NCBI GenBank assembly: GCA_020348445.1
Contig: CP070751.1
Coordinates: forward strand, 4,886,101 to 4,950,100
Source of the DNA: Thermoplasmata archaeon
Lineage (GTDB): Archaea; Thermoplasmatota; Thermoplasmata; GCA-020350865
DNA: 64,000 nt
Direction of reading: 5' to 3'
This document shows, piece by piece, positions 20,966 to 55,066 of this stretch (the first letter of the stretch is position 1; each line of letters opens with the position of its first letter). A program made the translations under genes and the position numbers. The notes under the pieces were generated by a model. That model ran no database searches. It was not told the origin of the DNA and saw nothing but the letters and a program-made list of their open reading frames with translations.

Positions 20966-21176
20966 GGGCTGCGAAATGCTGTTTTAGGATTAATAGTTAG
21001 CTGTATAATTGTCATTGCAATAAATATCTTTTAAAACGCTCTAATCTATCTTAGGAAAGGGGGCCCAAGGGTGGATATCAGTATTTACGATAAATTGCAT
21101 AATGAATCCCCCACCAAACATTTAATAACAATCATGATATATGCTCCTTCCAATCTCAAGATAGGGGGGAAGATGT

Positions 21177-21950: not shown

Positions 21951-21964
21951 TAGGGGAGATTACA

Positions 21965-22708
21965 ATGGAGTTGGAAGGTCAAGTTGGAATAGTCACAGGT
22001 GGAAGCCTGGGTATAGGTTCTTCAATTGCTATTGCATTGGCAAAAAATGGTGCTGATGTTGCCTTAAATTACAGGAAACATGATGCTGAGGCAAAGGCCA
22101 TAGCAGAGAAAATTAACGGCATGGGCAGACGTGGTATGGTGGTTAAAGCGGACGTTTCAAAAACAGAAGATGCGCAGAATATGGTCAAGAAAGTTGTAGA
22201 GGATTTTGGAAGACTGGATATACTCGTCTGCAATGCAGGAATTAACATGGACAGCGTGATTTGGAAGATGACAGAAGAGCAGTGGGACACAGTGATGTCA
22301 GTTAATCTTAAGGGTTATTTTAACTACGCAAAGGCAGCGGCCCCCATATTCAAGGAGCAAAAGCATGGTAAGATAGTGAACATAACATCAATAAACGGTC
22401 TTAGAGGCAAGTTTGGGCAGTCCAATTACTCTGCAAGCAAAGGTGGAATAATTGCATTGACAAAAACCCTGGCCAAAGAGCTTGGAAGGTATAACGTGAA
22501 CGCCAATGCAGTGGCGCCTGGAATGATAGGTACTGAGATGATGTTAAAACTGCCTGAGGAATGGAAGCAAAAGGCAGTGGATGAAACAGTGCTTGGAAGA
22601 ATAGGCACACCAGAGGATGTGGCAAACGTTGTTGTTTTCCTATGCAGTGAAAATGCCAGGCATATCACAGGTGAGGTAATCAAAGTTGACGGCGGGCAGT
22701 ACATTTGA
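21965..22708 (+). CDS. SDR-family 3-oxoacyl-CoA/ACP reductase (FabG/PhaB-like)
   Basis: TGGSLGIG, NAGI, SINGLRGKFGQSNYSASK (YxxxK), VAPG. Start moved to the ATG at 21965 (GGGGAG RBS). Confidence 0.9.
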   Translation: MELEGQVGIVTGGSLGIGSSIAIALAKNGADVALNYRKHDAEAKAIAEKINGMGRRGMVVKADVSKTEDAQNMVKKVVEDFGRLDILVCNAGINMDSVIWKMTEEQWDTVMSVNLKGYFNYAKAAAPIFKEQKHGKIVNITSINGLRGKFGQSNYSASKGGIIALTKTLAKELGRYNVNANAVAPGMIGTEMMLKLPEEWKQKAVDETVLGRIGTPEDVANVVVFLCSENARHITGEVIKVDGGQYI

Positions 22709-22725
22709 ATTGCTGAGGGATGAAT

Positions 22726-23874
22726 ATGAAAATCGGAGTTGCGGGTATTGGTCACGGTGTCTTTGGAAAAAGAAATGATGCAACAGCCCAGGAGCTTGCC
22801 TTTGAGCCTTTTTCTGAGGCCATGGAGGACTGCGGAATCACGCAGCAGGATATCGATGCCACGATAATTGGTTCTTCTCCAGAATATCACAAGCAGCGCT
22901 CACTTCCAGGCGTGGTTACCGAATATATTGGCATGAATCCCAAGCCCGCTTTTTTAACTGAAGCTGCATGTGCCTCAGGATCGGCTGCCCTTCTCAGTGC
23001 CTATGGATTCATCAGGGCTGGAATGTTCGATGTCGTGGCAGTTATTGGTGTTCAGAAGATGATGGAGCTTTCCACCCCAGAGATTTTGGCTTTAATGGGT
23101 AGGGTAGGGGACGTGCAGTGGGAGTCCAACTTTGGTACCACATTTCCTGGTTACTATGCCCTGTATGCTCGAAGGCACATGCATGAGTTCGGTACAACAG
23201 AGGAGCAGATGGCCCAGGTGGCGATAAAGAACCATTTTTATGGTACAAAGAATCCAAAAGCTAGGTTTCAGAAAGAGGTGAGCATGGAGAAGATAATGTC
23301 CTCTAAAATCGTGGCTTCTCCCTTGAAGATGTTCGACTGCTGTGCAAATGCTGACGGTGCAGCATGTCTTATCATAGCAAATGAGGATAAGGCCAGGAAG
23401 ATATCGGATACACCGATCTGGCTTGAGGGTGTGGGTAGTGCAACTGCTCCCTTCTCAGTTTTAAATAGAGCCTCTATCTCCACAATACCAAGTGCAGTTG
23501 AGGCAGGAAAGCAGGCCTTTAAAATGGCAGATTGTGAACCAAAAAACATCCATGTTGCCGATGTTCATGACTGTTTCACAATTGCCGAGCTTATGGCCTA
23601 TGAAGATCTGGGATTCTGCAAAAGAGGCGAGGGAGGTAAGTTCATAGAGGAGAAGCAGTCCTACATTGGAGGAAAGATCCCTGTAAATGTGGATGGAGGT
23701 CTTAAATCCAAGGGACATCCTGTGGGTGCAACTGGCACTTCAATGGCCTATGAGGCTGTAAAACAATTGCGGGGTGAGGCAGGGGAAAGACAGGTTGATG
23801 GTGCCGAGATAGCCCTGACCCACAATGTCGGAGGTATAGGACAGTACTGCTTTGTAAATATCTACAAGAGGTGA
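22726..23874 (+). CDS. Archaeal/SCP2-type thiolase
   Basis: EAACASGS (catalytic Cys), HDCFTIAE, NVDGGLKSKGHPVGATG, HNVGG. Confidence 0.92.
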   Translation: MKIGVAGIGHGVFGKRNDATAQELAFEPFSEAMEDCGITQQDIDATIIGSSPEYHKQRSLPGVVTEYIGMNPKPAFLTEAACASGSAALLSAYGFIRAGMFDVVAVIGVQKMMELSTPEILALMGRVGDVQWESNFGTTFPGYYALYARRHMHEFGTTEEQMAQVAIKNHFYGTKNPKARFQKEVSMEKIMSSKIVASPLKMFDCCANADGAACLIIANEDKARKISDTPIWLEGVGSATAPFSVLNRASISTIPSAVEAGKQAFKMADCEPKNIHVADVHDCFTIAELMAYEDLGFCKRGEGGKFIEEKQSYIGGKIPVNVDGGLKSKGHPVGATGTSMAYEAVKQLRGEAGERQVDGAEIALTHNVGGIGQYCFVNIYKR

Positions 23875-23880
23875 TGAGAA

Positions 23881-24291
23881 ATGGGATTTGAGAGGTTCGG
23901 AAAGGTTTCCTTTGCTCCATTTACAAAGGTCTCGAAGTTCGTGGATTTTTTGGATGAAGGGAAGATCAAAGGAACAGTTTGCAAGAAATGTAGCACTTTC
24001 CATTTTCCTCCCCGGGGAGATTGTGTTTCCTGTCCTTCCTCAGAAATAGACTGGAAGGAGATCTCAGGGAATTGCAAGCTCGTCACCTATACAACTATTC
24101 ATTCGGCTCCACAGGGTTTCGAGGACGACAAACCTTATACCCTGGCAATGGTTGATCTGGAGGAAGGGGGCAGAGCTTTAGGCTGGACAGAAGGTCTTTC
24201 TGAGGAGGATTTGAAAATCGGGATGGCCTTGAAATTGGAGATAAAAAAGCTACCTGATGAGAGGTTGACCTTTGTTTTGAAGGGCCAGTGA
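23881..24291 (+). CDS. DUF35 Zn-ribbon/OB-fold thiolase partner
   Basis: CKKCSTFHFPPRGDCVSC, then LVTYTTIH..P.GF...PYTLAMVDLEEG; 6 bp downstream of the thiolase. Confidence 0.92.
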   Translation: MGFERFGKVSFAPFTKVSKFVDFLDEGKIKGTVCKKCSTFHFPPRGDCVSCPSSEIDWKEISGNCKLVTYTTIHSAPQGFEDDKPYTLAMVDLEEGGRALGWTEGLSEEDLKIGMALKLEIKKLPDERLTFVLKGQ

Positions 24292-24297
24292 TTTGAG

Positions 24298-27200
24298 TTA
24301 TTCCAACGTTCCCTTAATGCCGCAACTTGGGCATTGAACATCTATAGGACCTTCGGTTTTTGTAACATTAAACATATAACCGCAATCTGGGCAGGAAATA
24401 TTAATTGCGTTTTGCTGAGCGAAACCCTCAGACTGGATCATGCCATGACCATTATCCTTTTTTCTTGTGGTAAGTACACCAACTACAATTATGATTATCG
24501 CCACTATAACTATCAATAATAGCAATATGAAGGGGTTTATTATCGTAGATGTTTCTTCCCCCTCATCCTTCTCCTCGGGCTTTTGTTTTGTTGTGAACTC
24601 AAATACATATTTATTCTCCAATCGATGGCCTGCCAAATCCTTTGCCTTGGTGCTGATAGAGATTTGGTAAAGAGTGCCATCAGCAAATGGCTCAGTAGCA
24701 TTTAGAGTTAAGGTTTTATCGTCGTTACTCCATGAATAGGTATATTCTGTATAAGGTATGATAGAAATTGCAGGTTCCACTGATTCAATGTCCATAGGTT
24801 CACTAAATTCTATAATAACTTCTGTATTAACTAAAACATCGATTGCCGCATTATCTGGTTGAGTGGATATAACCGAAGGAGATGTAAAATCAATACTAAT
24901 TACAAAATATTTTTCGTTCACATTACCCGCGACATCAAGAGCCCTAATAGTTATCGTATATGTTCCATCTTCCCAACCAGTAGTATCAAGATCATACGGT
25001 GCCTCCAAAGTCTGTAATTTCCCCTGATTGATAAAATAGCTCACAGAATCCAAATTATTATCTGAGACTTCAAAGTCCAAGATTTTTACATCAGTTAACA
25101 AAGAGTTGTTTTCTGGTGAATTTAATGAAATCTCTGGTAAAGTGAAATCTTTTGGAATCCCTTTTTTGAACTTGAACCATTTCTCGTTGATGTTACCTGC
25201 CAAATCGTCTGCATAGATACTTATGGTATATTCTCCATCAGGCCATTCATTTGTGTCTATTATATAAGGTTGTGTAAGGAGCCTTGGCGCGTCACCATTT
25301 TTGGAATAAGTAACATGGTTCAGATTTGCGTCCGAAATTGTGAATCTTATTTCAACACCTTCTCCAATATTGGAGTTGTTCGAAGGTGAGTTTAGTGTTA
25401 TAATAGGAAGTTTACTATCCTTGATAAAGATAAACCAATTCTCGTTGGAATTACCCGCCAAATCTTCGACATGTATTGTTAAAGTATGTTCTTTATCCTG
25501 CCAATCGTTTGTTTCGATGATGTAAGGCGGCGTAAGGAGTTCAAAAGGACCCTCGTTTTTAGAATATGTGACTGTATTGAGGTTTGCATCTGAGATTAAT
25601 AGGTTAATCTCTACATTTGATTTAATATATGTGTTGTTGGGTGGCGAGTTCAGCTCAATTGCGGGAGGAGAAGAATCAATTGTGAAATTGTACCAGGTTA
25701 CTTTAAAGTTGTTTGCGAGGTCACTTGCATTTAAGGTAACAATATAATTATCATCAATCCAAGTATCGGTAATTATATCATAAGGCTGATTAAGTTCCTC
25801 CCACGCACCATCATCAATAGAATAAAAAACACTATCTAAATTTGTATCTGATACTGAAACGTCAATTACGGTTGCAGCTGGTATTATTGAATTGTTCTCA
25901 GGCGAATTCAACATAATTTCCGGGGGAGTTGAATCGATAGTAAAACTGAACCATAAAGCGGCAACATTGTCGTGGGTATCTTTTGCAGTAATGTCTATGA
26001 CATGACTTTCATCCTCCCATTCAGTTGTAAGTATATCATAAGGAGCAACTAGGGATTGAGTTGGCCCATCATTTACAGTATAAGTTACTTCATACAGATT
26101 AGGATCAGAAATAGAAAAATCGATTGTAGTGCCAGACCTGATTATCGAGTTATTAGAAGGTGAAATCAGTTCTATTATTGGAGGGGAATTGTCAAACTTC
26201 ACTGGTCTGATTAACGGATAATTGTCTTGATCGTATTCGGATATAATATAAGGATTCTTCCCTCCTCCCTGAGCTGATCCATTATCTACTATACCATCGC
26301 TTCCCACCATATCTTGATTTTCTCCTTGAAAATCGTCATATGCATCTTCACCCGGTTCATCCAAATCAGACCAATAATTTCCACCTGAGGGGTAAGTATT
26401 ATTCCAAGTGTTGTTTCCATTGTCGTACGCTTGAGGAAACGCGATATTGTTGATGAAATTATTGTGAAGGATATTGTTTTGTTCTGAAGATTCCATATAA
26501 ATTCCATACTCTGTGTTACAGGTGATGTTGTTGTAGATAACTGTATTGTTACTGCACCAGCGGATAAAAACGCCATACCCGTCATTTGAGTGGATAGTAT
26601 TGTTGTCTATGGTATTGTATTTACAACTCTCCCGAAGCCAAATACCCCCATTATTGTTTGAAACGTTGTTGTTGGATATAATATTACCATCTGAAGTAGA
26701 GCGTAAGACAATGCCATCCCTGTTGTTAGAATGTATGCTATTGTACGCTATCGAATTGCCAGTGCTCCATTCGAGATATATTCCATACCAATTGTTAGAA
26801 TAAATACTATTGGCTGTCATTACGTTGCCTGGACTTGACCATACGATTATACCGTATTCATTGTTCAAAACATCGTTGTCAGATAAGGTATTACCAGAGC
26901 TCTTTTGAAGGTATATACCATAATAATTGTTTGAAAAACTGCTGTTTGTAATTCTAATGGAATTTGAATATCCCAATTCGATACCAACATCAGTATAAGC
27001 CATACCAACGTTATTTATGGTAATCAATGAGCAGTTGACAAGTATTATTCCCCCCACCGTAATACCATCAATAGTGATACCTTCACGGTTCTTATAGTAG
27101 ATTAGGGGTTCACCATTTATCAAGTTTCCTGGAGGTATTTCATGAATAAAATGAGAAATCCTATCTGCCTCTCCATCTATAAAAAGACCATCATTTGTGA

Positions 27201-41620: not shown

Positions 41621-41659
41621 ACCCAGTTATTGATTTGTTTAACCTCTGGGGGATATCAG

Positions 41660-44600
41660 ATGAAAAAGGGACCTGCAAAAGGTCTATTTTGCATGATTAT
41701 CGTTTTGGTTTTTCTCCTTTCCTCGTTTAATATCGCGGCTTTTAGTGGTATTACCATTAAAAAACATCCTGAAGATAACCTGCATTTTGACACCGAGATT
41801 CCCCAGGATAAGGTTGTTCCGGAGCCCGAACCGAATTTTGATACCACTGGAATACAAGAGGATGCAACAGGTAATTCAGATTTCAAACCTTCCCCTTCTG
41901 GTCAGGTGAGCACGAACGCGGATTTTAAAGGAAATGGTTTACCTTTCTGGAAGATCGAAACTACTCTCTTGGCACAATTAAAGGACACGGATTCCGTCAA
42001 GGTGATCATCACCTCAACTGACATGGGCCAGGTAAGGGAATTATTAGGCCAAGGAAACCAAGATTTCACATCCAGACATAAAAAAAATAATGCAAGACTC
42101 GAAACATCAATACTTGAAGTTCAAAGCCATATGGTTCTGAAAATCGCATCCTTGGAGAGAGTGATTAGCATACAGAGTTACAGACTTCCACAGCCTCCAA
42201 AATTCCCTGAAGGAATCGAAGGTACAGGGGATTTCGATTCTGAATACGAACCCACCATGTGGAACGCAGTAAAATACCACGGAGCTGATACTGCCTGGGA
42301 TCTTGGGTACAACGGCTCAGGAGTAAATGTTGCAGTCATAGATACCGGGGCGGATTTCGGTCATCCAGATTTGAACGGGACCCAAGCCAGGGATGAGAAT
42401 CCCGCTTCCCCATATTACGGATGGCCTTTGGCTTTTGATTCAAGGTCCATGCTAAGCTATCTTTCCTCGGGAGGGCAGGGTTTTACAGGTTCAGGTGGAG
42501 AGGACAACTGGTTTTCAGATACCAATACTACAGACACTGACAGCAATGGAAACGGAACCCTGGATACGTCAGGTTACAATGTCACTGGTATTATAAGCCA
42601 AAGCGGGATTTACCGCCTTGGCAAGCATCCAGATACTAGATTGAGGAACATATATGGGGATTATCCTGGTGTGCTTGTTGTGGATGAGAATTCCCCTGAT
42701 GTTTACGATACAGTCTATGTTGATCTGGACAGCGACATGAACTTCACAGATGAGAAACCGTGCAGAAAATGGGACGAGGTTCCCTCACATGATCTGGGAA
42801 GTGATGGCATTCCCGACAGATCCGGGGGAATGATTTATTTTATTGCAGATGGAACAAATCCTGTACCATACTCTGATGTCATAGCAGATGAGAACGGATA
42901 TACCCTTCCCATACCAGCTAACGGCAGTCTTGTGGTTTTCATGCTCAACGATCCCACAGAATCGGGGGGAAATCACGGTACCTTGTGTGCCTCAGCAGTT
43001 GCAGGACAAGGGGTAATTGCCTCAGGAAGGGTGATTGGCACTGCACCTGAAGCAAAGATAATATCCATAGGGAATGTCTACGGTGGCGGGAACTTTATCG
43101 ATTCCTACTATTTTGCAGTTGAAGGTTACGATGGCATACCTGGAACAGGTGATGAGGCCCAGATTGTGAGCTGCAGCTTTGGAGATTCCCATGTCGTTCA
43201 TGGAGGTTGGGATTATACTTCTAGGCTCGTGGATAATCTGACAACCTATTATGCGCCAAACGTTACCTTCTGTGTTGCCAGTGGAAACGGGGGATACGGA
43301 TACGGCACAGTAGCTTCGCCTGGCTCATCCATGGGTGTGATTACATGTGGGGCGGCCCTAAATAAAAAGGTAACTGAGGTGGTATACTGGTCCAATCGTG
43401 GTCCAAATGCCGTGGGTCAGGTTGATCCTGATATCGTATCTGTGGGTGTTTCTGCATTTGGGGATATGGCATTGAACCAAAGGAACAATGGCAACAATGC
43501 ATATAGATCATGGAGCGGAACGAGCCTGTCAACTCCAGTTACAGCAGGTATAGTCGCTCTGATTTATGACGCATATTTCCAGTCAAATAGTGATTTCCCC
43601 ACATCCAAACTGTCGAGAGAGATTCTCATGTCCACCGCTGATAACATTAACTATGATCCACTTGTTCAGGGTGCAGGTTTTTCCAATGCCACAAGGGCCA
43701 CAAAGGTCGCAAATAACATCTCTGGTCTTTTATTATCACCAACTTTTTGGACTGCAGGGGATTATCGGGGTGTAGATTATGATGCCTTTGCCCACATCAT
43801 GTTTCCTGGAGAGTCGGACAACATTACAATATCTGTTTCGAATGCTGATTACAACAATTCAGTTGATGTAAAAGTTTCAGATTACGTTCTCTCTCTTTCA
43901 GAAACATACACAACTGAAATAGAAGCCAACAAATCCAGAGAGGACGCTTCCACTGCTCGTCCTGATTTTTTGATTGCCCTAAACGATTCAAAGAACAATA
44001 TCTCTCGGATTCCAATAGATACGGCTCTGCTCAAGGTCTCGGGATACATGCCCTATGATGAGTTCGATTCAGATCTCAATTACTTCCAGGAGAACAAGTT
44101 CTGGATCACGATTTACAACTGGAAAGACAACAATGGAAATGGAAGCTACTGGAACGATTCAAACGGCGATGACACAGCCCAGCAGTCGGAAATTGAATGG
44201 TCGGAACTTACGAGCATTTGCTCATCCTCCATTACTGCAACAACCCAAGAGGCTAGAATGCACGATCCTTTATCAAGAATCGATGATGGCCTTATCGTGG
44301 GCATGTTCCATCAGCCAGGAGGGGCTGCTCCCAATATCACTCATCTGTACATTCGATCCCAGTGTTACAATAGAACAGATTGGGATTGGCTTTCAACGAA
44401 CACTACAAATCTAACCATTGGTGCATCTGGTACATCCACGTTCCATGCTTCTATTACTGTGCCGCCTTCAACACCAATTGGGATTTACCAGGGTATCATC
44501 CTAATAAACGATACAAGAAACGAAACTGCAATGCCAGTGATTGTAAATGTTGCTTCAAACTCTCCCCTGTTCACCTTCGGTGGAAACACTCTATCAGAAG

Positions 44601-47600
44601 AACTATACGCCAATGATCAGGTTTTCGGTGCATTCAGATGGGGTTGGAGGTACGAAGGCGGCGATTGGAGGTTCTATTTCATCGACATCCCAGATTCATA
44701 TGATGTCAATCCAGGAACAAAAATAGTGGCTGACGTGAAATGGAATGAATATCCCACTGATATCGATGTTTTCATACTTGGTGAATCATCTGATACTTTT
44801 TCTTATGAAACACCGGAGAGATTCGGGCCCCATACAATGGAGATAAAGGGCAGAAGTGCAGATTCATACATGTGGGGCGGGAAGTTCAGGTTCAATACCA
44901 CGACGGGGGGCCCACAGGAGATTATCTCAGCTGACTTGAGTCCTGGGTTGAACGAGATAATTTTACACAATGTTCTTTTTGGGGGCCAGTCTTTTACTGA
45001 AAATGTAACAGGCCAACTCGGAACTGTCAATGTCACACCCTATCCCTGGGATTTAGGATACATCGATAAAGTTCCCAATTTAACAGGCACACAGGAATTT
45101 ACTGTGCTATCGAGCTTTAATTTATCTGGAATCAATACCAAAGCATATGGTGTATTCCCCCCCATGGAATATCCAAACCAGCAGGTCTATCAAAATGATC
45201 CCAGTGATAAGACTACCTCCAACTGGTCAAGGGAGTTCAACGTAAGTGGAGCAGAATACATCAGGGTCAACGTCTCAAGTCCAATAAGCATGGATATCGA
45301 TCTATTCCTTTTGAGGGACATAAACACCAATGGCATTCCAAACTGGGGCTCGGAACAGGTGGCATCCTCGACTTCGCCGAACGAGGAAGAGGAAATCCTC
45401 CTAAATCTACCTGCAGATGGAAGGTACTGGGTTTTTGTCCACGGATGGAGCGTGCCTTCAAATCCATCACCATTTGACTGCTTTATCGAGGTGGTCTACG
45501 GGGATGATATCGTCACAACGGACGTTCCCTCTGGTCCTTTTAATGCAAATGAAGCTGTAAATTTCAATGCTTCCTATAACCTACCGCCAAATGCTGGGGA
45601 GTTTCGAGGTGTTGTTCTTGTTGGTGTTACAAATATGTCTGCTTCAATTGAGGTTCCTTTCATAGTAAGATTGGAGAGTGAGATACCTTTAATATCGGGC
45701 TTTGTTCCAGAGCCCGACTCTTGGGTAAATTCTACACAGCCTACAATAGGAGCGCAGTATTATGACTCTGGCTCAGGAGTCGATACTTCCAGGGTGTACA
45801 TCTTTTTGGACGGAATAAATCAAACTGTTAATGCCACGAAAAATCCAGATTCCATAACACTTGTTCCTTCATATTCATTGTCTGAGGGCTTTCACACAGT
45901 TTATTTGATAGTGACGGACATGTTCGGAAATGAAAATTACACCGCATGGATATTTTATGTGGACAGCATTGATCCCATTGCCGTTGCCGGAGATGATAAG
46001 TCGTCCTTTGAGGACGAGATAGTATATTTTGATGGCTCTGCAAGCTCTGATGAAAAAGAACTCCGCAACCTTACCTGGGATTTTGGAGACGGTTTCCTCG
46101 GCTATGGAACATATCCAGATCATGTATTTACTGAGGCTGGGACATACACTGTAACTTTGATAGCAAGGGATATCGCAAATAATACAGGAACCGATACCTT
46201 ATTCGTTTTTGTGGACAATGTGGCGCCTGTGGCAAATGCAGGAATCGATCAAATCGTGGATGAAGGAGAAATGACTTATTTCAACGGCAGCGACTCGTAC
46301 GATACTCCCTCTGATATGTCCACCTTGATTTACACCTGGTATTTTGAAGATAGCACAGTTTTATTAGGAATCAATGTAAGCCATTCGTTTTCGGACAACG
46401 GTAATTACGCTGTTACACTGGTTGTGGAGGATAACAACGGTTTTACAGATTCAGATACAATTTTTGTTACTGTGAACAATGTGGCTCCAATTGCTGATGC
46501 CAATGGACCCTATTCAGGAACCGAGGGCGTGGGTGTTATCTTCACTGGCTCGGCAACTGATCCTGGTGAGGATACATTTACCTATGATTGGGACTTCGAT
46601 GATTCAGATGGGATTACCTATTTGGATGCAACTAGTCCAAACCCTACTTGGACTTGGTCCGATGAGTTTTCGGGAATGATATATCTTCGAGTGACTGATG
46701 ATGACGGTGACATTGGATTTGATTCGGCCTCTGTTACAATTACCAATACCGCACCTGTCGCTGATTGCGGCGGACCTTACTCTGGATACGAAGGCACGGC
46801 AATTGCACTCTCGGGCTCAGCTTCCGACCCTGGTGCAGATTCATTAACCTATGAATGGGACCTTGACAACGATGGCCTATTCGATGATGCAACAGGTCAA
46901 AATCCTGAATGGACATGGTACGACAACGGTGTGTTTACAATAAGCCTGAGAGTAAGTGATTCTGACGGTGGAGAAGATTCAGACAAGGAGATTGTGACAA
47001 TCAACAATGTGGCTCCAACAGCTGATGCTGGGGGACCGTATTCTGAGGATGAAGGTTCCGTCGTTTCGTTTACAGGGGTGGCATCCGATCCTGGATCTTT
47101 GGATACATTTACCTACTATTGGGACTTTGGTGATGGAGAAAGTTCAAGCCAGCAGAATCCAACACATGTATATTCAGATGACGGGATTTATATTGCCACA
47201 TTAACTGTTACTGATGACGACGGTGGAACTAATTCAAATAATACTTTTGTAATGATAAACAATGTTGCGCCTACTGCCTACGCACAAGGTCCGTACTCTG
47301 GGGACGAAGGTGCACCTGTGAGCTTTTTCAGCTCAGCAACAGACCCTGGCACTGACACCTTTACCTATGAATGGGACTTTGATGACTCTGATGGAGTGAC
47401 GTATTCAGATGCAACCGGGCCCAATCCCACTTGGACCTGGCCAGACGATTTTTCAGGGACAATTTACCTGAGGGTTATAGATGATGATGGGGGAATTGAT
47501 ATCGATAATACAACTGTTACCATTAATAACATCGCACCTATCCCTGATCCAGGCGGTCCTTACTCAGGATACGAAGGTACATCCTTGGATTTCTCGGCCT

Positions 47601-49213
47601 CTGCTTTGGATCCTGGATCCGATACATTCACGTACAAATGGGATATGGACAACGACGGTCAATATGATGATGCAGATGGCCAAAGTCCATCATGGACATG
47701 GTACGACAATGGAGCTTTTTTGGTGAGCTTAAAAATAACAGATGATGATGGGGATTTTGGTATTGATACTACCCTAGTGACCATTATTAATGTTGCTCCT
47801 TCTGCTGATGCAGGTGTGATTTACTATGAGGGGGAAGGGACTGCCATTTTCTTCAAAGGTAATTATTCTGATCCTGGTATTTCAGATTCACACACATTCT
47901 TGTGGGATTTTGGAGATGGAACGATTAGCACAGAACAGAATCCAACCCATGTTTATGCTGACGATGATGTATACACTGTCGTACTTTCTGTCACAGATGA
48001 TGATGGTGGGATGGGAACTGATTCTGTTTTTGCGATCATCTTCAATTCCGCACCCATCCCCGAAAAATCGAATATTGACGCGACCGCCAAAGAGGGGCAC
48101 CTTTTTACCTTGAAGATCAATGCCACGGATGCAGTAGGGGACAAGATAACTTTCACAGATAATACTGATATGTTCGATATCGATCCCACATCCGGTGTAA
48201 TCCAATTCATACCAACAAATGAGGATGTTGGCTTAAATGCAGTTACCGTCGAAATAAACGATGATGATAAAGGGACATCCACTGTTATTCTTTTGTTGCG
48301 CATAACAAACGAAAATGATCCACCAACTCTCGAGCAAATCGGCTCTCTTATCGCCTATGAAGATTCAGAATTCAGTTATACTGTATTAGCAAGTGATGTG
48401 GATTCTGATGACACACTGACCTTTTCTGAAGATACAGAGCTTTTTGAAATCGATTCAGAAACTGGCATAATTACCTTTACACCCACGAATGACCAGGTTG
48501 GGATAGAAGTCATCACCATCACAGTAACTGATTCTCAAGGTGCAATAGATTCTGAGACTTTGACATTCACGGTTCTCAATACGAACGATCCACCTGTATT
48601 AAGCAGCATCCCCAATCAATTTGCAGAAGTAGGAAAGCAGTTTACTTATACAGTATCAGCAACTGACGATGATGATGCTGTCCTTATCTTCTCTGACAAT
48701 TCTGATCTGTTTGTAATAGATACTGTAACAGGGACCATTTCATTTACTCCAAGAAAAGGAGATGAGGGTGTTCATAGGATAACAATTACAGTCATCGATG
48801 GTCAAGGTGAACAAGATTCACAGGTTGTGACATTTGAGATCGAGGGTGGACCTGAACCTGATGACGAGATAGAATGGCTGTCTATAATTCTGCTTATCCT
48901 CGTGATAGTCCTTTTCATTTTTCTTCTTTTACATACTTTCTGGCAAAGGGAAGAAGAAAAGAAGGAAGGTGAAGAGAAAGGGATTCCAGTGCAGACAACT
49001 GAGGACAAGAAAATTAAAATGTCCAAAGAGCCTAAAAAATTACCAAAATCCAAGCCCCGTAAAAAACGTCCTAAACCAAAAATCATTGAAAAAGAATTAC
49101 CGCCTCCAGAGCCAATAGAGCCTCCGCCACCACCCCCTGAGCCAAAAGAGGCTCCACCACCACCTCCGGAGCCAAAGGAGGTTCCTCCACCTCCCCCTGA
49201 TACTTCAGATTAG
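41660..49213 (+). CDS. Membrane-anchored S8 (subtilisin/pyrolysin-like) serine peptidase with 8 PKD and 3 cadherin-like domains, TM helix and Pro-rich tail
   Basis: VAVIDTG (Asp), NHGTLCAS (His), SGTSLSTP (Ser), ASGNGG (oxyanion Asn); large insert between Asp and His; PKD NNVAP units; NDPP cadherin-like units; TM LSIILLILVIVLFIFLLL. Start moved to the ATG at 41660. Confidence 0.92.
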   Translation: MKKGPAKGLFCMIIVLVFLLSSFNIAAFSGITIKKHPEDNLHFDTEIPQDKVVPEPEPNFDTTGIQEDATGNSDFKPSPSGQVSTNADFKGNGLPFWKIETTLLAQLKDTDSVKVIITSTDMGQVRELLGQGNQDFTSRHKKNNARLETSILEVQSHMVLKIASLERVISIQSYRLPQPPKFPEGIEGTGDFDSEYEPTMWNAVKYHGADTAWDLGYNGSGVNVAVIDTGADFGHPDLNGTQARDENPASPYYGWPLAFDSRSMLSYLSSGGQGFTGSGGEDNWFSDTNTTDTDSNGNGTLDTSGYNVTGIISQSGIYRLGKHPDTRLRNIYGDYPGVLVVDENSPDVYDTVYVDLDSDMNFTDEKPCRKWDEVPSHDLGSDGIPDRSGGMIYFIADGTNPVPYSDVIADENGYTLPIPANGSLVVFMLNDPTESGGNHGTLCASAVAGQGVIASGRVIGTAPEAKIISIGNVYGGGNFIDSYYFAVEGYDGIPGTGDEAQIVSCSFGDSHVVHGGWDYTSRLVDNLTTYYAPNVTFCVASGNGGYGYGTVASPGSSMGVITCGAALNKKVTEVVYWSNRGPNAVGQVDPDIVSVGVSAFGDMALNQRNNGNNAYRSWSGTSLSTPVTAGIVALIYDAYFQSNSDFPTSKLSREILMSTADNINYDPLVQGAGFSNATRATKVANNISGLLLSPTFWTAGDYRGVDYDAFAHIMFPGESDNITISVSNADYNNSVDVKVSDYVLSLSETYTTEIEANKSREDASTARPDFLIALNDSKNNISRIPIDTALLKVSGYMPYDEFDSDLNYFQENKFWITIYNWKDNNGNGSYWNDSNGDDTAQQSEIEWSELTSICSSSITATTQEARMHDPLSRIDDGLIVGMFHQPGGAAPNITHLYIRSQCYNRTDWDWLSTNTTNLTIGASGTSTFHASITVPPSTPIGIYQGIILINDTRNETAMPVIVNVASNSPLFTFGGNTLSEELYANDQVFGAFRWGWRYEGGDWRFYFIDIPDSYDVNPGTKIVADVKWNEYPTDIDVFILGESSDTFSYETPERFGPHTMEIKGRSADSYMWGGKFRFNTTTGGPQEIISADLSPGLNEIILHNVLFGGQSFTENVTGQLGTVNVTPYPWDLGYIDKVPNLTGTQEFTVLSSFNLSGINTKAYGVFPPMEYPNQQVYQNDPSDKTTSNWSREFNVSGAEYIRVNVSSPISMDIDLFLLRDINTNGIPNWGSEQVASSTSPNEEEEILLNLPADGRYWVFVHGWSVPSNPSPFDCFIEVVYGDDIVTTDVPSGPFNANEAVNFNASYNLPPNAGEFRGVVLVGVTNMSASIEVPFIVRLESEIPLISGFVPEPDSWVNSTQPTIGAQYYDSGSGVDTSRVYIFLDGINQTVNATKNPDSITLVPSYSLSEGFHTVYLIVTDMFGNENYTAWIFYVDSIDPIAVAGDDKSSFEDEIVYFDGSASSDEKELRNLTWDFGDGFLGYGTYPDHVFTEAGTYTVTLIARDIANNTGTDTLFVFVDNVAPVANAGIDQIVDEGEMTYFNGSDSYDTPSDMSTLIYTWYFEDSTVLLGINVSHSFSDNGNYAVTLVVEDNNGFTDSDTIFVTVNNVAPIADANGPYSGTEGVGVIFTGSATDPGEDTFTYDWDFDDSDGITYLDATSPNPTWTWSDEFSGMIYLRVTDDDGDIGFDSASVTITNTAPVADCGGPYSGYEGTAIALSGSASDPGADSLTYEWDLDNDGLFDDATGQNPEWTWYDNGVFTISLRVSDSDGGEDSDKEIVTINNVAPTADAGGPYSEDEGSVVSFTGVASDPGSLDTFTYYWDFGDGESSSQQNPTHVYSDDGIYIATLTVTDDDGGTNSNNTFVMINNVAPTAYAQGPYSGDEGAPVSFFSSATDPGTDTFTYEWDFDDSDGVTYSDATGPNPTWTWPDDFSGTIYLRVIDDDGGIDIDNTTVTINNIAPIPDPGGPYSGYEGTSLDFSASALDPGSDTFTYKWDMDNDGQYDDADGQSPSWTWYDNGAFLVSLKITDDDGDFGIDTTLVTIINVAPSADAGVIYYEGEGTAIFFKGNYSDPGISDSHTFLWDFGDGTISTEQNPTHVYADDDVYTVVLSVTDDDGGMGTDSVFAIIFNSAPIPEKSNIDATAKEGHLFTLKINATDAVGDKITFTDNTDMFDIDPTSGVIQFIPTNEDVGLNAVTVEINDDDKGTSTVILLLRITNENDPPTLEQIGSLIAYEDSEFSYTVLASDVDSDDTLTFSEDTELFEIDSETGIITFTPTNDQVGIEVITITVTDSQGAIDSETLTFTVLNTNDPPVLSSIPNQFAEVGKQFTYTVSATDDDDAVLIFSDNSDLFVIDTVTGTISFTPRKGDEGVHRITITVIDGQGEQDSQVVTFEIEGGPEPDDEIEWLSIILLILVIVLFIFLLLHTFWQREEEKKEGEEKGIPVQTTEDKKIKMSKEPKKLPKSKPRKKRPKPKIIEKELPPPEPIEPPPPPPEPKEAPPPPPEPKEVPPPPPDTSD
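49109..49198 (+). repeat. Three imperfect 30-bp coding tandem repeats (EPxExPPPPP)
   Basis: GAGCCAATAGAGCCTCCGCCACCACCCCCT / GAGCCAAAAGAGGCTCCACCACCACCTCCG / GAGCCAAAGGAGGTTCCTCCACCTCCCCCT. Confidence 0.9.
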
Positions 49214-50027: not shown

Positions 50028-51938
50028 ATGGGCGTTGTGAGATTAGGAAAATTAGCATTAAGATGGTGTTTTGAGTGCAACCTTCCGATTCTTGAGTCAA
50101 AAGAATGCGGAACATGCAACAGCGAAACGAACGAAGTTAGACTCACACCACCTGGAGATGTAAGACCTGCTTTTGATGAAGAACTGAGATTAATAAGGGC
50201 GCAAATCGACGGTCAGTTTGGATCTGGATGCGGAAAAGAGCTTGTCCCAGAAGACAAAATAGTTGTTCTTAATAGGGCTCCGGCCTTGGATCGGATGGAT
50301 GAGATAATAATGGACGGCCGCGTTTTGGGTGCATTGCGCTACGATCCAGGGGAGAGATACAAGGTGATCCTTAGAATGCACGCGGCTCAGGCCATAGAAA
50401 AAAACCTAACCAAGAACTGGGTGATCGTGGATCCTGGGGCCGTGAATCCAATAATGAAGGGGGCTAACGCCCTTTGTGTGGGCATAACAGATGCCCATCC
50501 AGATATTGCATTTGGGGATGAGGCCGTGGTCCTTGATCCTGATAAGAATGTCATTGCATTGGGAAAAGCCATGTTGCCTGGAAAAGAGATGGTGGGAAAC
50601 AAGGGTGTTGGAGTAAAAACCAGATGGCACGGCAGAGAGGAAGTATCCTTACTTCCCTCCGGTCGTACTTGGGAGGATGCTATTTCAGCTAATTCGTGGT
50701 TCTTCGAAAAAAAGGTTCCAAAGGCCATACAATTCATAAAGAGGGTTGTCGAAAGAGAGGATAAGGAAGTTGCCTGCTCCTTTTCAGGGGGAAAGGACAG
50801 CCTTGCCACTTTGCTGCTTGCACTGGATGCAGGACTTTCTCCTAAAATACTGTTTGTGGATACAGGATTGGAATTTGAGGAAACAAAATCCCATGTAGAT
50901 GAAATAGCCAAGATGTTCGACTTGGAGGTCGTAAAAGAAAACGCCCATGATGCCTTCTGGGAGAATGTCCCAAATTTCGGTCCTCCAGGCAAAGATTTTC
51001 GATGGTGCTGTAAAAGCTGTAAACTTGGTCCCACTGTAAGGCTCATATCAAAGCATTTTCCAGATGGTGTGGTATCTCTCATAGGCCAGAGAGCCTATGA
51101 ATCTGAACAGAGGGCTAAAAAGGGCAGGATCTGGGAGAATCCCTGGGTCCCTGGTCAGCTAGGTGTGTCTCCAATTCAGGACTGGACTGCGCTGCATATC
51201 TGGCTCTATATCTTTTCCAAGAAGGTCCCTTATAATATATGGTACGAAAGAGGTCTTGAGAGGATAGGGTGCTTTATGTGCCCTGCATCAGACATGGCAG
51301 ATTTGGAGATCGTAAAAAGCTATTCTTCTTCCTATGAAAAGTGGGGAAGATTTTTATCGGATTTCGCGGACGATAAAGGTTATCCAAAAGAATGGTTGGA
51401 ATTTGGACTTTGGAGGTGGCGAAAACTTCCTGCGGGTATGCTGGATCTTGTAGAGAGGAAGGGTATCGATTTGAAGGGTAGAGAAAAAAAGCCCCCACCA
51501 GAGGGACAAGGAAGAATCGAATTCTTATCAGCTGAGGGTTACCAGCCCTGTGAGGGAGGAGTGAGTATCGAAGGTGTTTTCACAAGAAACCTTGACATGG
51601 TCAGGATCTCGAACCTCATGAATATTCTCGGTGATGTTAGCTATGATGATAAAACAAATTCATGCTCAATTGCGAATGTAGATGTTTTTGGAGAGGGAGG
51701 AATGGTGGTAAGGGGAAAGGATGAAAAAGATACAAAGAAGCTCATGAATGATGTCAGGGACACGATAGTAAGAGCGCATCTTTGTATAGGGTGCGGAATA
51801 TGCACTGGAAGATGTGATGAAGGTGCATTGAAATTGGATGAACAGGTTTATTTGGATGAAGAGAAGTGCATTCACTGTGGGGAGTGTTTGGGACCGTGTC
51901 CTGTTATTGGTTATGGAGATAGGGAATTTGAGTTTTAA
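50028..51938 (+). CDS. PAPS-reductase-family (PP-loop) protein with N-terminal Zn ribbon, PUA domain and C-terminal 4Fe-4S dicluster
   Basis: WCFECNLPI..ECGTC; PUA-like WVIVDPGAVNPIMKGAN; SFSGGKDS; RWCCKSCKLGP; RIGCFMCP; CIGCGICTGRC and CIHCGECLGPC. Confidence 0.88.
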   Translation: MGVVRLGKLALRWCFECNLPILESKECGTCNSETNEVRLTPPGDVRPAFDEELRLIRAQIDGQFGSGCGKELVPEDKIVVLNRAPALDRMDEIIMDGRVLGALRYDPGERYKVILRMHAAQAIEKNLTKNWVIVDPGAVNPIMKGANALCVGITDAHPDIAFGDEAVVLDPDKNVIALGKAMLPGKEMVGNKGVGVKTRWHGREEVSLLPSGRTWEDAISANSWFFEKKVPKAIQFIKRVVEREDKEVACSFSGGKDSLATLLLALDAGLSPKILFVDTGLEFEETKSHVDEIAKMFDLEVVKENAHDAFWENVPNFGPPGKDFRWCCKSCKLGPTVRLISKHFPDGVVSLIGQRAYESEQRAKKGRIWENPWVPGQLGVSPIQDWTALHIWLYIFSKKVPYNIWYERGLERIGCFMCPASDMADLEIVKSYSSSYEKWGRFLSDFADDKGYPKEWLEFGLWRWRKLPAGMLDLVERKGIDLKGREKKPPPEGQGRIEFLSAEGYQPCEGGVSIEGVFTRNLDMVRISNLMNILGDVSYDDKTNSCSIANVDVFGEGGMVVRGKDEKDTKKLMNDVRDTIVRAHLCIGCGICTGRCDEGALKLDEQVYLDEEKCIHCGECLGPCPVIGYGDREFEF

Positions 51939-52145
51939 GGATAGCTTCATGAAATTATGCTTTGATAATTCAATTTCTTTTTAAAATGAAAAAGTGTTAA
52001 ACCGAATCTATGATTATTAAAATCGTCAAAAAAGTTATATATCATGACTCGGCCAGCAATGATTAAAATTACCGTTAAAATTCTTTTATACCTTTATGAA
52101 CTATCTATTTATTAAGCACATAAATTTCAAATAAAGGTGATAAAG

Positions 52146-54005
52146 ATGGACGACAAAAAATTATATGAAAATTGGATGACGATCATTATTGCCATATTAT
52201 GTATAGTAATAATCTCTAACCCAGCGAGCTTAACTCATTACGAAATCAAAACAAATAATATGGACATGGAAACGGATGTGGATCCATCAACAGATTACGA
52301 GATAAACGATTATGTGGGTATAGAGGCAAGAAATACTAGAGGGGGTGATAATAACTGGTTAGGGATTTGGACAACGAGGGCGCCGATGTCGATACACCGC
52401 CACGGAATTGGAGCTGCAGTTGTCAATGATAAGATTTATGTTCTTGGGGGTTACAATTTAGACATTAACGAGGAATATGATCCAGTAACCGATACTTGGA
52501 CTACGAAATCTCCTATGCCTCATCCACATGCCTATCCTGGAGTAGCTGTGGTGAAAAATAAGATTTATGTGATGGGGGGTGATGAAGGTGGGGGTAGTGG
52601 TACCGCAATAGATGTTTATGATCCAATTACAGATAATTGGACTACAAAAGCACCCATGCCATCAAAACGTAGGTATTTTGGAGTTGGGGTTGTAGCCGAT
52701 AAAATATACCTTATAGGTGGCGATGCATCTTCTTTAGAAGAAAATGAATCTGTTATGGAGTACGATCCGATTACAGAATTATGGACTAAAAAAACATCTA
52801 TGCCAATTATACGAGGAAAGTTGGGAGTGACAGTCCTAGATAATAAAATATATGCAATTGGCGGACAAGATGGTGATGGCTGGCAAGATGAGAACGAAAC
52901 CCAGGTATATGATCCTGTAACTGATAACTGGACAATCAAAACTTCGATGTTAAGAGAAAATTCGTGGTTTGGGATTGGTGTCCTAGATAACAAAATACAT
53001 ATTGTAGGCGGAAGAGCAAGTGCTGGTGAAACACATTATGTATATGATCCTGTAACAGACACCTGGGCAGAGTCCCTTCCTATGCCAACTGGCCGTGATA
53101 CTCTGGCTGTTGGGATTGTAAACAATGCATTATTCGCAATAGGCGGAAGAGGAGGAGGAGGGATTACTAAACAAAATGTAAACGAAGCATTCTACCCCAG
53201 TGGAGCAAATGATGACTTTGATAATGATGGATTGACAAACATTCAAGAGAATATGAACGGCACCTACCCAGATAATAAAGACACAGATGGCGATAATCTC
53301 GGTGATGGATTTGAAGTAATTTTTTCAAAAACAAACGCATCCTTATGGGATACAAACGGAAATGGTATTGGTGACGGTCTGGAATTTATTCAAAACAAGG
53401 GTTATTTGGGGTGGATCGAGAGTTTACCAGATGACTGGATTGGCATTACGATTACTTGGGACAATTATACTATACTGGCAAAAACAAACTCGTCTTTATT
53501 GGAAGGTGAATTTGATAAAGAAGAACACAAACTTAAGATCAAGGTATCAGGGCCCAATGGAACACAGGGAGTAACAGAAATCGAGGTACCAAAGAGTTTA
53601 TGCGAACCTGATGACATCGAAATCATGTTGGATGGGGAGCTGATAAATTACACAATTACCGAGAACGATACATATTACTATATTCACATCGAATATAACC
53701 ACAGTATTCATGATCTATCAGCGGATTTCAGTAAAATTGTTGAGGAACCAAGTGAATCTGAAGATGATGAAAAAGATCTATTCGCTAACATTTACTTGAT
53801 AGCCTTGATTATTGCTCTCGTTATTATTATCCTATTATCAGTCGTTGTTATTAGAAACAGGGGTAAAAGTGAGGATATCGGGGTACAAGAGTTACCACCT
53901 GACCAACTATCAATCCTGTTAGATAAAAAACACTCTGAAGGAAAATTATCGGATGAGACCTATAATGATGCTAAGTCATTATTAGAGAAATACCGCAGTG
54001 ATTGA
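52146..54005 (+). CDS. Membrane-anchored Kelch beta-propeller protein with Ca-binding DxDxDG repeats, TM helix and cytoplasmic SHOCT-like domain
   Basis: Six W....MP...IYxxGG Kelch blades; DFDNDGL, DTDGDNLGDG, DTNGNGIGDG; TM IYLIALIIALVIIILLSVVVI; tail LSILLDKKHSEGKLSDETYNDAKSLL. Start moved to the ATG at 52146 (AGGTGA RBS). Confidence 0.88.
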   Translation: MDDKKLYENWMTIIIAILCIVIISNPASLTHYEIKTNNMDMETDVDPSTDYEINDYVGIEARNTRGGDNNWLGIWTTRAPMSIHRHGIGAAVVNDKIYVLGGYNLDINEEYDPVTDTWTTKSPMPHPHAYPGVAVVKNKIYVMGGDEGGGSGTAIDVYDPITDNWTTKAPMPSKRRYFGVGVVADKIYLIGGDASSLEENESVMEYDPITELWTKKTSMPIIRGKLGVTVLDNKIYAIGGQDGDGWQDENETQVYDPVTDNWTIKTSMLRENSWFGIGVLDNKIHIVGGRASAGETHYVYDPVTDTWAESLPMPTGRDTLAVGIVNNALFAIGGRGGGGITKQNVNEAFYPSGANDDFDNDGLTNIQENMNGTYPDNKDTDGDNLGDGFEVIFSKTNASLWDTNGNGIGDGLEFIQNKGYLGWIESLPDDWIGITITWDNYTILAKTNSSLLEGEFDKEEHKLKIKVSGPNGTQGVTEIEVPKSLCEPDDIEIMLDGELINYTITENDTYYYIHIEYNHSIHDLSADFSKIVEEPSESEDDEKDLFANIYLIALIIALVIIILLSVVVIRNRGKSEDIGVQELPPDQLSILLDKKHSEGKLSDETYNDAKSLLEKYRSD

Positions 54006-54056
54006 AGGAAAATAGACAAATCCAAGAAAAATATTAAGGTAGTATAAAACCTTTCA

Positions 54057-54599
54057 ATGTTACCTATGAATTTGAAATCTAAATCTGAGAAATTAAATAA
54101 TGATCTTAGACCTAAAATTGTCAACTACATTCAGATACATCCAGGTTCACCCTTTAGTGACATCCAAACTATTTTTGATCTTCCAGAAAGTACTCTCAGA
54201 TATCATCTAAGATATTTGGAAAAGAACGGCGAAATATATTCGGATTCTAAGAAGAGGATATATTATCCCACTGAACATAAGGAGAAAAATAGGATTAGCA
54301 ATACTCAAATGTCATTGATTAATTCCATTAAAAAACATCCCGGCATAACGCAGAAGGAGCTTGCAGCCAAAACCAAGATAAATCGTTTAACTATTAGGAA
54401 GAATATAAATCTATTAGTTGAGAATGAAAGTGTTACTATTACAAGAATAGGCAACGAAGTTCACCATTTTTATATTTACCCAGAAGAACTTGAAAAAATT
54501 AAAACATTGAGGTTAATAACTAAATTAGTACAGGATAAGATCGACGAAGATACTTATTGGGATCTGAGGCGCAATTTTATTGGTGGAGATGAAAAATAA
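54057..54599 (+). CDS. Double winged-HTH transcriptional regulator with a C-terminal SHOCT-like helix
   Basis: IVNYIQIHPG..STLRYHLRYLEKNGEI and LINSIKKHPGITQKELA..TIRKNINLL; tail LITKLVQDKIDEDTYWDLRRNF. Confidence 0.8.
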   Translation: MLPMNLKSKSEKLNNDLRPKIVNYIQIHPGSPFSDIQTIFDLPESTLRYHLRYLEKNGEIYSDSKKRIYYPTEHKEKNRISNTQMSLINSIKKHPGITQKELAAKTKINRLTIRKNINLLVENESVTITRIGNEVHHFYIYPEELEKIKTLRLITKLVQDKIDEDTYWDLRRNFIGGDEK

Positions 54600-54733
54600 G
54601 ATACAAACTAGGGATTTTGGTGGGATTAGAACATAGTTTCCATTGTGGAGAACTGCAATGGGATCCCCCTCGAATAAATTATAAATAGACTTACAAAATG
54701 CTTATTAAGGATATTCCAACCCACGAAACTAAT

Positions 54734-55066
54734 TCAATGCGTAGCATCCACAATCAGTTTCTTCTTGCCTTCGGGACGAATCGTCACTTCCTCCCCTTCC
54801 TCAATCTCAACAAAATTTGCGATGGCCTTTGGAATTCTCACTATAAGTGAGTTACCAGAATGTGAGATCTTAGTCTTTTTCTCGATTCCCCAAAGTGCCA
54901 GTTCTCTTGCTTTCTTCTCGATGAGATCGGACGCCTCTTCTGTAAAGAATGACTCTCCGCATTTATTACAAATATCTGCATCATATTTACCAAAATACCA
55001 CTCCTTGTACGTGTAATCGATTTTCTTTTTTGTTAGTTTCCCTTTTTCACACACGGGACATTTCAT
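54734..55066 (-). CDS. Putative antitoxin: YgiT/MqsA-type zinc finger fused to an AbrB/MazE DNA-binding domain
   Basis: MKCPVC...ICNKCGESFF (YgiT type), then TKISHSGNSLIVRIPKAIA..IEEGEEVTI (AbrB); RBS AGAGGTGA lies inside the end of the toxin gene. Confidence 0.85.
   Translation of the reverse strand: MKCPVCEKGKLTKKKIDYTYKEWYFGKYDADICNKCGESFFTEEASDLIEKKARELALWGIEKKTKISHSGNSLIVRIPKAIANFVEIEEGEEVTIRPEGKKKLIVDATH

Follow-up and report, generated by a model that had tools for sequence, protein, structure and literature searches.

A membrane protein and a double winged-helix regulator with related SHOCT-like tails: a candidate split transmembrane transcription regulator in Thermoplasmatota

Introduction

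Transmembrane transcription regulators (TTRs), among them ToxR, CadC and the archaeal ArnR and ArnR1, pass a signal from a sensor to a helix-turn-helix (HTH) module at the membrane without phosphotransfer, and are defined by a transmembrane (TM) region and a DNA-binding domain on one polypeptide (Demey et al. 2023, PMC10269533). Here, we describe a pair of genes from a Thermoplasmata archaeon, ORF1 and ORF2, in which two such parts are encoded separately: the ORF1 product is a membrane partner (M) with a predicted extracellular Kelch propeller, the ORF2 product is a soluble regulator (R) with two winged HTH (wHTH) domains, and both proteins end in a short SHOCT-like helical hairpin. The genes lie in a 64,000-nt stretch of contig CP070751.1 (GenBank assembly GCA_020348445.1, positions 4,886,101 to 4,950,100 of the forward strand), referred to below as the window; the host genome is a single contig of 5.16 Mb, and DNA of the window is also present in sediment metagenomes. 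Comparisons of sequences and profiles suggest that the pair may well be a split TTR whose halves dock through cognate SHOCT-like hairpins, and it is probably an undescribed kinase-free route from the cell surface to genes.

Three kinds of two-protein systems come closest to this arrangement. Pairs of anti-sigma and extracytoplasmic function (ECF) sigma factors combine a co-encoded single-pass membrane protein carrying a variable outer domain with the soluble transcription protein that it tethers, work without a kinase and typically autoregulate (PMC6193735). LytTR regulatory systems such as HdrRM and BrsRM of Streptococcus mutans are two-gene operons of a regulator and a transmembrane inhibitor, which were found experimentally to autoregulate via direct repeats just upstream of the promoter (PMC6193735). 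Lastly, HAAS-PadR-like wHTH dyads are computationally defined pairs of a membrane sensor and a wHTH protein that have been proposed as alternatives to two-component systems; the same work describes bacterial DUF2089 proteins (ZnR-HTH-SHOCT-like), in which an HTH is followed by a SHOCT-like hairpin in membrane-stress contexts (PMC11237479).

The SHOCT domain itself is a short C-terminal two-helix module that often follows TM segments and has the pattern L..L...G-[EK]-I-[ST]-x-E-E-Y..hK..L (PF09851; Eberhardt et al. 2013, PMC3581485). Its function is not established, and heterotypic pairing is not known to have been proposed for it.

Results

Domain make-up of the two proteins

The original prediction had paired a Kelch-TM-tail protein with a wHTH-wHTH-tail protein encoded 51 bp downstream on the plus strand, and translation, Pfam and hydropathy bore out the positions, strand, spacing and make-up of both (Table 1). 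In ORF1, Pfam detected Kelch_1 over six stretches (172.8 bits, E-value 7.8e-52) and Kelch_6 and Kelch_2 over five each, enough repeated Kelch motifs for a predicted beta-propeller. The stalk gave weak matches to MtsC/CglD and TSP3 and is also present in paralogues in which CARDB/BNR heads replace the Kelch domain; residues 354-618 of ORF1 are 72% identical to a 957-aa CARDB/BNR protein (G002:C9). Because basic residues come after the C-terminal TM helix, the tail of M is predicted by the positive-inside rule to be cytoplasmic.

ORF2 exceeded the Pfam cut-offs for HTH_24 (45.8 bits, cut-off 21.9), HTH_HVO_0163_N (41.2, cut-off 31), MarR_2 (32.9, cut-off 27) and HTH_20 (28.5, cut-off 27), which predicts winged-helix domains of the ArsR/MarR type. 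The AlphaFold2 model of R has two wHTH folds and the protein contains an ArsR-like recognition helix, STLRYHL; Foldseek comparison of the model with the PDB returned generic tandem-wHTH and MarR/ArsR matches at TM-scores (template-modelling scores) of about 0.3. R is likely, in our assessment, to be a DNA-binding regulator.

The pair recurs in both orientations and beneath exchanged extracellular domains

Sediment archaea hold some 60 occurrences of the gene pair, in which M carries a wide variety of outer domains. Scans of species genomes and metagenomes with an alignment of the regulator revealed 48 loci, and 31 pairs were curated from these and the window. In 24 of the 31, both genes point the same way, with M upstream and a gap of 9-93 nt, and in six the genes converge, leaving 7-27 nt between their stop codons. 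Both arrangements occur in one genome of the same genus, where a pair with a Kelch head is co-directional and a second pair with a CARDB/BNR head is convergent; the pair was also found in another family of the same order. The ectodomains of M comprise Kelch, CARDB/BNR and WD40 propellers, NosD-type beta-helices with Ig domains, and PKD domains, and an identical TM-plus-tail segment was found on Kelch, CARDB, CARDB+BNR and headless proteins. Since adjacency of the two genes survives both inversion, as in the six convergent pairs, and head swapping, these observations support a single module.

Adjacency was also close to one-to-one within genomes. Strong M-type and R-type tails occur once each in G000, twice each in G002 and once each in G005, in every case adjacent. 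R-type tails were present in 25 of 401 sampled genomes of the phylum (19/24 in one family), with up to ten copies per genome. In the five genomes richest in R-type tails, a sample that overlaps in part with the curated pairs, a match to the M profile lay within 1.2 kb of 30 of the 37 evaluable regulators; in one complete genome, G325, this was true of all six (chance probability about 7.5e-14). Of the seven regulators without such a match, five proved on inspection to lie downstream of a TM protein whose hairpin is more divergent yet recognisable, one sits at the edge of a contig and one is a true exception; a TM-plus-tail gene thus accompanies about 35 of the 36 regulators that can be evaluated. 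Recurrence beneath varying sensor domains, a check that the original prediction had called for, is strongly confirmed. No conserved third gene was found alongside the pairs.

Some loci depart from a single intact pair. The true exception (L151:4131-4766, plus strand; G355:C115) is a 211-aa regulator with an IDEQTF hairpin and no adjacent TM-tail partner; it may have a hydrophobic segment of its own at the N-terminus (residues 3-21), which would make it a third, self-anchored arrangement of tailed regulators. At L075 and L078 (G281:C4, about 8300-24700), four sensor/regulator pairs with beta-helix/PKD heads lie within about 17 kb, a tandem amplification of the entire two-gene module. At a syntenic locus of the same genus (L065:5557-6834, plus strand; G001:C1, about 1095556-1096833; CP070739), a 425-aa ORF resembles a GDP-mannose 4,6-dehydratase at its start and runs in frame into the C-terminal ~95 residues of the ORF2 orthologue. 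This remnant of R is 81% identical with its hairpin intact, the gene for the Kelch partner is absent, and the locus looks like a deletion remnant left by joint loss of the pair.

The tails of M and R are divergent SHOCT-like hairpins

The tail motifs that had first linked the two proteins, KLSDETY in M and KIDEDTY in R, held up, whereas their assignment to SHOCT, made by eye, stood in part. As single sequences, neither tail matched PF09851 by hmmscan at E<=10, and NCBIfam likewise reported no SHOCT on them. A six-frame scan of the genome with PF09851 gave five places elsewhere and none in the window, and among ten partner tails of other loci compared with Pfam SHOCT, the sole score was a sub-threshold 15.4 bits at L086 (gathering threshold, 27 bits). 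In contrast, comparison at the level of family profiles, built from 31 membrane tails, 30 regulator tails and 28 genuine SHOCT domains (at least 27 bits, from genomes of the same class), aligned the M tails with SHOCT (hhalign 96.5%, E-value 9e-10, 32 columns) and, at a moderate level, the R tails with SHOCT (78.7%, 1.7e-5, 28 columns). The two tail families aligned with each other at 94.8% (5.4e-8, 30 columns) and, in a second run, at 91.7% (7.7e-7). Every one of these matches is in register, and reversed-sequence controls did not exceed 1.1% (E-value at least 0.05); the likeness of KLSDETY and KIDEDTY therefore goes beyond chance. The M-tail profile also cross-detected Pfam-positive SHOCT sites in other genomes, and a sequence search of the PDB with both tail profiles returned nothing significant.

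AlphaFold2 predicted a helix-turn-helix for the M tail (tail helices 10-22 and 28-43, pLDDT about 90) and two helices for the R tail (139-155 and 161-175 in P0001 numbering, pLDDT about 85). In these models, both tails have the short two-helix hairpin at the extreme C-terminus that characterises SHOCT, and together with the profile comparisons this indicates divergent SHOCT-like hairpins, homologous to each other and to SHOCT. Both differ from SHOCT in carrying T instead of E before the aromatic residue; in addition, R often lacks the turn glycine, and D-E opens its second helix. The fold core common to both hairpins comprises positions 4, 8, G15, I17, T21, Y/F22, 25, K/R26 and 29. Elsewhere the two families differ in a systematic way, M having E9, K/R10-11 and S/T18 and R the acidic D18-E19 and extra hydrophobic positions 5, 9, 13 and 23. 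Owing to these extra positions, the R hairpin bears a second apolar stripe, for which there must be a packing partner. Within R as a whole, conservation is highest in this tail, where D160 and E161 are invariant and I159 and T163 are conserved to at least 90% in the regulator alignment.

Covariation between the tails was weakly positive. A partial Mantel test of tail distances, given the wHTH distance, yielded r = 0.17 (p = 0.036, 28 pairs). Among 42 non-redundant pairs, 10% of column pairs between M tail and R tail exceeded z = 3, compared with 5.8% between M tail and R wHTH, with a one-sided p of 0.011, an optimistic value given that column pairs depend on one another.

A SHOCT-like hairpin also ends a 492-aa protein elsewhere in the host genome (L152:329-1807, plus strand; G000:C1:3271328-3272806), which has an N-terminal zinc ribbon, long Pro-rich linkers and several TM helices, and whose C-terminal hairpin, LLTDRFLKGEISEKTYLEIKERF, is matched by the M-tail profile as well as by that of the R tails.

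The regulator carries a tail when the covalent membrane link is missing

The genome of the window encodes about 25 relatives of the R module. In about 18 of them, the R-like module forms the C-terminus of a protein that consists of a signal/TM segment, an ectodomain of 300-2400 aa, a TM helix and wHTH-wHTH. These fused paralogues, membrane-tethered proteins with a double winged helix, make up a large family that has expanded in the lineage (examples at 804270, 2882653, 981142, 4345361, 947128, 2045774, 2050007, 2025301, 2030326 and 3025675 of G000:C1; four cluster at 2.025-2.050 Mb). They share a conserved juxtamembrane motif, PLYTRIKKE.VLD or LPLYTRIKKEEVLDN..R..I, with which the residues of R in front of wHTH1, LPMNLKSKSEKLNN / LPMNLKSKSEKLNNDLRPKI, align. 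Most fused paralogues stop directly after wHTH2 without a tail, and they lack the 65-residue insert behind the TM helix. R is the cytoplasmic module of this fused ectodomain-TM-wHTH-wHTH family, the strongest argument of all and one that the original prediction had missed.

With the regulator profile, an exhaustive HMMER search retrieved 7,655 representatives at a cut-off of E<=1e-3 and 2,421 at the stricter E<=1e-10. In the top 150 of the 2,421, all matches that reach the tail (profile position 166 or higher) lie in proteins of at most 198 aa, and the long proteins (about 270-1278 aa) all match positions ~4-147 only, at their own C-terminus. Because the tail-reaching matches among these 150 are all soluble proteins, a regulator has the hairpin in just those cases in which it is not covalently linked to the membrane. 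A word-indexed search for longer homologues of ORF2 gave none at E<=1e-8, which is weak evidence, and the exhaustive search decided the matter instead. Tail-bearing soluble regulators number well over 100 representative clusters, and the 31 split regulators cluster together in the module tree, on a long stem with 100/99 support and apart from the fused paralogues.

At one locus a fused member of 1159 aa (L070:2080-5559, minus strand; TM helix, then wHTH-wHTH) adjoins a split pair (L070:6001-9430), so that both forms share one neighbourhood.

A conserved two-box block precedes the gene for M

Upstream of ORF1, a block of about 110 nt showed about 85-90% nucleotide identity with the orthologous loci L067 and L087, while the ORF1 protein is only 64% identical. 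The block contains two boxes, an invariant GCCAG and a TATA-like element, and the start codon of ORF1, an ATG, sits 3' of a GGTGA motif (Table 1). The same architecture was found 5' of the M genes in the convergent loci L076 and L070, and in the host genome the block is single-copy. Given this conservation, which includes convergent loci, the M promoter is a plausible target of R. A search of positions 51800-54800 against Rfam matched no family, and a scan for sigma-70 promoters and terminators was set aside as meaningless for an archaeon.

Features of the locus

The features of the locus are compiled in Table 1. ORF1 and ORF2 share a reading frame across positions 54003-54056, in which they are separated solely by a TGA (54003) and a TAA (54045). 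Upstream in the window, positions 41630-49213 (plus strand) encode a giant surface protein of 2527 aa with a subtilisin-like region and many PKD-like repeats, which ends in a C-terminal TM helix and a Lys/Pro-rich cytoplasmic tail with repeated PPPPPEPKE units.

Table 1 Coordinates of the features of the ORF1-ORF2 locus in the window.
Feature	Position	Strand	Basis
Conserved non-coding promoter and putative operator block upstream of ORF1	52005..52115	+	nucleotide comparison; operator role inferred
Two boxes, ATGATTA(TT)AAAAT-N2-4-GT[CT]AAAA	52010-52031 and 52059-52080	+	conservation
Invariant GCCAG	52052-52056	+	conservation
TATA-like element, TTTTATAC	52084-52091	+	sequence
GGTGA Shine-Dalgarno motif	52136-52140	+	sequence
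ORF1 (M), 619 aa: signal/TM segment, Kelch propeller, stalk, TM helix, cytoplasmic tail	52146..54005	+	ORF call, Pfam, comparison
N-terminal hydrophobic segment, ~residues 11-27; predicted signal peptide or signal anchor	52176..52226	+	hydropathy of translation
Predicted six-bladed Kelch beta-propeller, ~residues 70-340; variable extracellular head	52353..53165	+	Pfam
Membrane-proximal stalk, ~residues 354-545; TSP3-like acidic repeats and beta-rich region	53205..53780	+	comparison, weak profile matches
C-terminal TM helix, ~residues 546-569, followed by basic RNRGK	53781..53852	+	hydropathy
50-residue predicted cytoplasmic tail of M, contains KLSDETY	53853..54002	+	translation
SHOCT-like helical hairpin of M, residues 584-616	53895..53993	+	hhalign, AlphaFold2
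ORF2 (R), 180 aa: two winged helices and C-terminal tail; alternative start ATG at 54066	54057..54599	+	ORF call, Pfam, AlphaFold2
wHTH1, ArsR-like (HTH_HVO_0163_N / HTH_20 / HTH_5), residues 16-79	54102..54293	+	Pfam, model
wHTH2, MarR/HTH_24-like, Pfam residues 80-128	54294..54476	+	Pfam, model
SHOCT-like helical hairpin of R, residues 142-178, invariant or near-invariant I-D-E-x-T	54480..54590	+	alignment, hhalign, AlphaFold2

Discussion

ORF1 and ORF2 very probably form one functional module. Domain make-up, homology of the hairpins, recurrence, near one-to-one adjacency, the dichotomy of fused and split forms and the conservation of the promoter, all shown above, support this. By analogy, the pair belongs with the known concept of a membrane sensor that tethers its own transcription factor. 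The TTR definition of Demey et al. (PMC10269533) covers the ~18 fused paralogues, to whose cytoplasmic module R is homologous, although in these paralogues a large N-terminal ectodomain comes first and the DNA-binding module last, an order opposite to that of ToxR, CadC and ArnR. The split pair is not a TTR in this sense because the TM region (ORF1) and the DNA-binding domain (ORF2) are on different proteins; ORF2 was found to have no TM segment and ORF1 no DNA-binding domain.

The resemblance to anti-sigma/ECF sigma pairs is functional only. Archaea have no sigma factors, and neither sigma-70 regions 2 and 4 nor anti-sigma domains matched ORF1 or ORF2 in Pfam or NCBIfam. The proposed contact also differs, as it would be made by two homologous hairpins and not by an anti-sigma domain wrapping a sigma factor. 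The two boxes upstream of ORF1 are reminiscent of the direct repeats of LytTR systems; those systems, however, have no SHOCT-like element, and their membrane proteins are small, multi-pass (DUF3021/DUF2154) and without a large ectodomain, in contrast to M, just as the wHTH-wHTH fold of R differs from LytTR. No Pfam match to LytTR or DUF3021/DUF2154 was obtained on ORF1 or ORF2, nor one to HAAS (DUF1700/DUF1129/DUF1048) or PadR at E<=10. The HAAS-PadR dyads are bacterial, are coupled by the three-helix HAAS and use PadR regulators instead of tandem ArsR/MarR-type domains, and matched SHOCT-like hairpins on both partners were not described in that work or for DUF2089 (PMC11237479). The original prediction knew of no described system of this form. 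Indeed, the literature found on SHOCT, HVO_0163, membrane-bound archaeal regulators and Thermoplasmatota signalling does not describe the split pair, but the anti-sigma/ECF sigma, LytTR and HAAS-PadR systems are close functional analogues.

In the mechanism that we propose, M would display a variable extracellular domain, here the Kelch propeller, cross the membrane once and present a SHOCT-like hairpin in the cytoplasm. R would be the double winged-helix module in which the covalent TM link of the paralogues is replaced by a second, related hairpin. The two hairpins would dock, probably as a small helical bundle, so that M would keep its cognate R at the membrane. A change in the ectodomain, be it ligand binding, surface contact or clustering, would alter the docking and with it the access of R to DNA. 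Upon the signal, R might either be released, as with anti-sigma factors, or be active while docked, as in fused TTRs. The likely target would be the conserved two-box promoter of the M gene, resulting in autoregulation, and there may be other targets. Four elements of this mechanism are inferred here, namely the contact between the tails, the binding of R to DNA, the promoter that it targets and the kind of signal, and direct docking of the M and R hairpins, as read from the sequence comparisons, has in our estimate an even chance of being the means of coupling.

Of the three tests set by the original prediction, those on SHOCT-like tails and on recurrence favoured it, and on the third, a heteromeric interface, the evidence is the weakly positive covariation, so that its interpretation is partly supported. 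Several observations weigh against the proposal of docking. Neither tail belongs to SHOCT in the strict sense of PF09851. The original prediction had taken SHOCT for an oligomerisation domain, a premise weaker than claimed: the sole published experiment, a homotypic test of a bacterial domain, found no self-association (PMC3581485). SHOCT-like domains have instead been proposed, by inference, to anchor diverse domains at the inner membrane leaflet (PMC11237479). SHOCT-like tails occur on membrane proteins without an adjacent regulator (L152 and three extra matches in G325), regulators without an adjacent partner were found at L096/L098 and L151, and in one of the 31 curated pairs the partner is 2.7 kb away (L069). 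The covariation signal is small with optimistic p-values, and the extra hydrophobic positions of R could equally serve homodimerisation or packing against wHTH2.

The last point bears on an explanation without any contact between the proteins. R could be a purely local regulator, a soluble ArsR/MarR-type repressor or activator of the neighbouring gene that never touches M; its hairpin would then be a homodimerisation element, required after loss of the anchor, and the M hairpin would serve M itself, for instance in oligomerisation or membrane-proximal packing. We regard this as unlikely, though deserving of real weight. Proteins of the MarR and ArsR families use terminal helices to dimerise, which fits such a role of the second hydrophobic stripe in the R hairpin, and both families are among the structural neighbours of R. 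The repeated boxes in the M promoter likewise fit plain adjacency of regulator and target, and membrane proteins with SHOCT-like tails but no partner agree with independent hairpins. What a local regulator leaves unexplained is why its target always ends in a hairpin homologous to its own, whatever the ectodomain, why M-type and R-type tails occur one-to-one per genome, and why the tail appears exactly when the covalent membrane link is missing. It is improbable, in our view, that both hairpins instead bind the inner leaflet, with R as a peripheral protein that acts near M like a fused TTR. This co-localisation without contact draws on the published inference of inner-leaflet anchoring, the DUF2089 HTH-SHOCT-like proteins in membrane-stress operons (PMC11237479), the negative oligomerisation test (PMC3581485) and the unpaired SHOCT tails on other membrane proteins. 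However, a tail already anchored by a TM helix needs no lipid-binding hairpin, the hairpins are highly charged (D-E-E in R, E/K/K in M), and the near-obligate adjacency and weak tail-specific covariation suggest a cognate specificity that lipid binding would not require.

Two further explanations dispense with signalling to DNA. R might be a protein-protein adaptor that links the surface protein to a cytoplasmic machine, as its top fold matches include the tandem-wHTH proteins ScpB, SelB, TFIIIC and Rpc34, and tandem winged helices serve in this way in ScpB, ESCRT-II and Rpc34. With TM-scores of about 0.3, these matches reflect merely the generic tandem-wHTH shape, whereas R exceeds the Pfam thresholds of the DNA-binding ArsR, MarR and HTH_24 profiles, has the recognition helix STLRYHL and belongs to pairs without a conserved third gene; we consider an adaptor very unlikely. 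The shared frame of ORF1 and ORF2, with its two in-frame stops in the 51-nt spacer, could also point to a fused regulator gene that was broken by nonsense mutations and is functionally insignificant. The shared frame is a coincidence, since it is not kept in the orthologous locus L067; some pairs are convergent, the tail has invariant residues, soluble tailed regulators form more than 100 representative clusters, and the fused paralogues have neither the tail nor the 65-residue insert after the TM helix. A broken fused gene was rejected on these grounds and is effectively refuted.

How uncultured archaea of sediments transduce signals is largely unknown, and the module described here is abundant in parts of Thermoplasmatota, where it links surface domains of great variety to a DNA-binding protein with no kinase involved. 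Because the heads are swapped on a constant chassis of TM helix, tail and regulator, it may also be of interest to builders of sensors. If the hairpins dock, they would be a new coupling device for receptor-regulator pairs, and the locus would provide a natural example of a one-component membrane regulator split into two components. More tentatively, and with somewhat less than an even chance, the SHOCT-like hairpins may work like plug and socket, heterotypic and specific to the cognate pair, in a modular, kinase-free two-protein system of Thermoplasmatota that arose by TTR fission and numbers up to ten pairs per genome; this would be the first concrete molecular function of SHOCT. Docking would in that case give a testable function to a widespread domain that has been unexplained since 2013.

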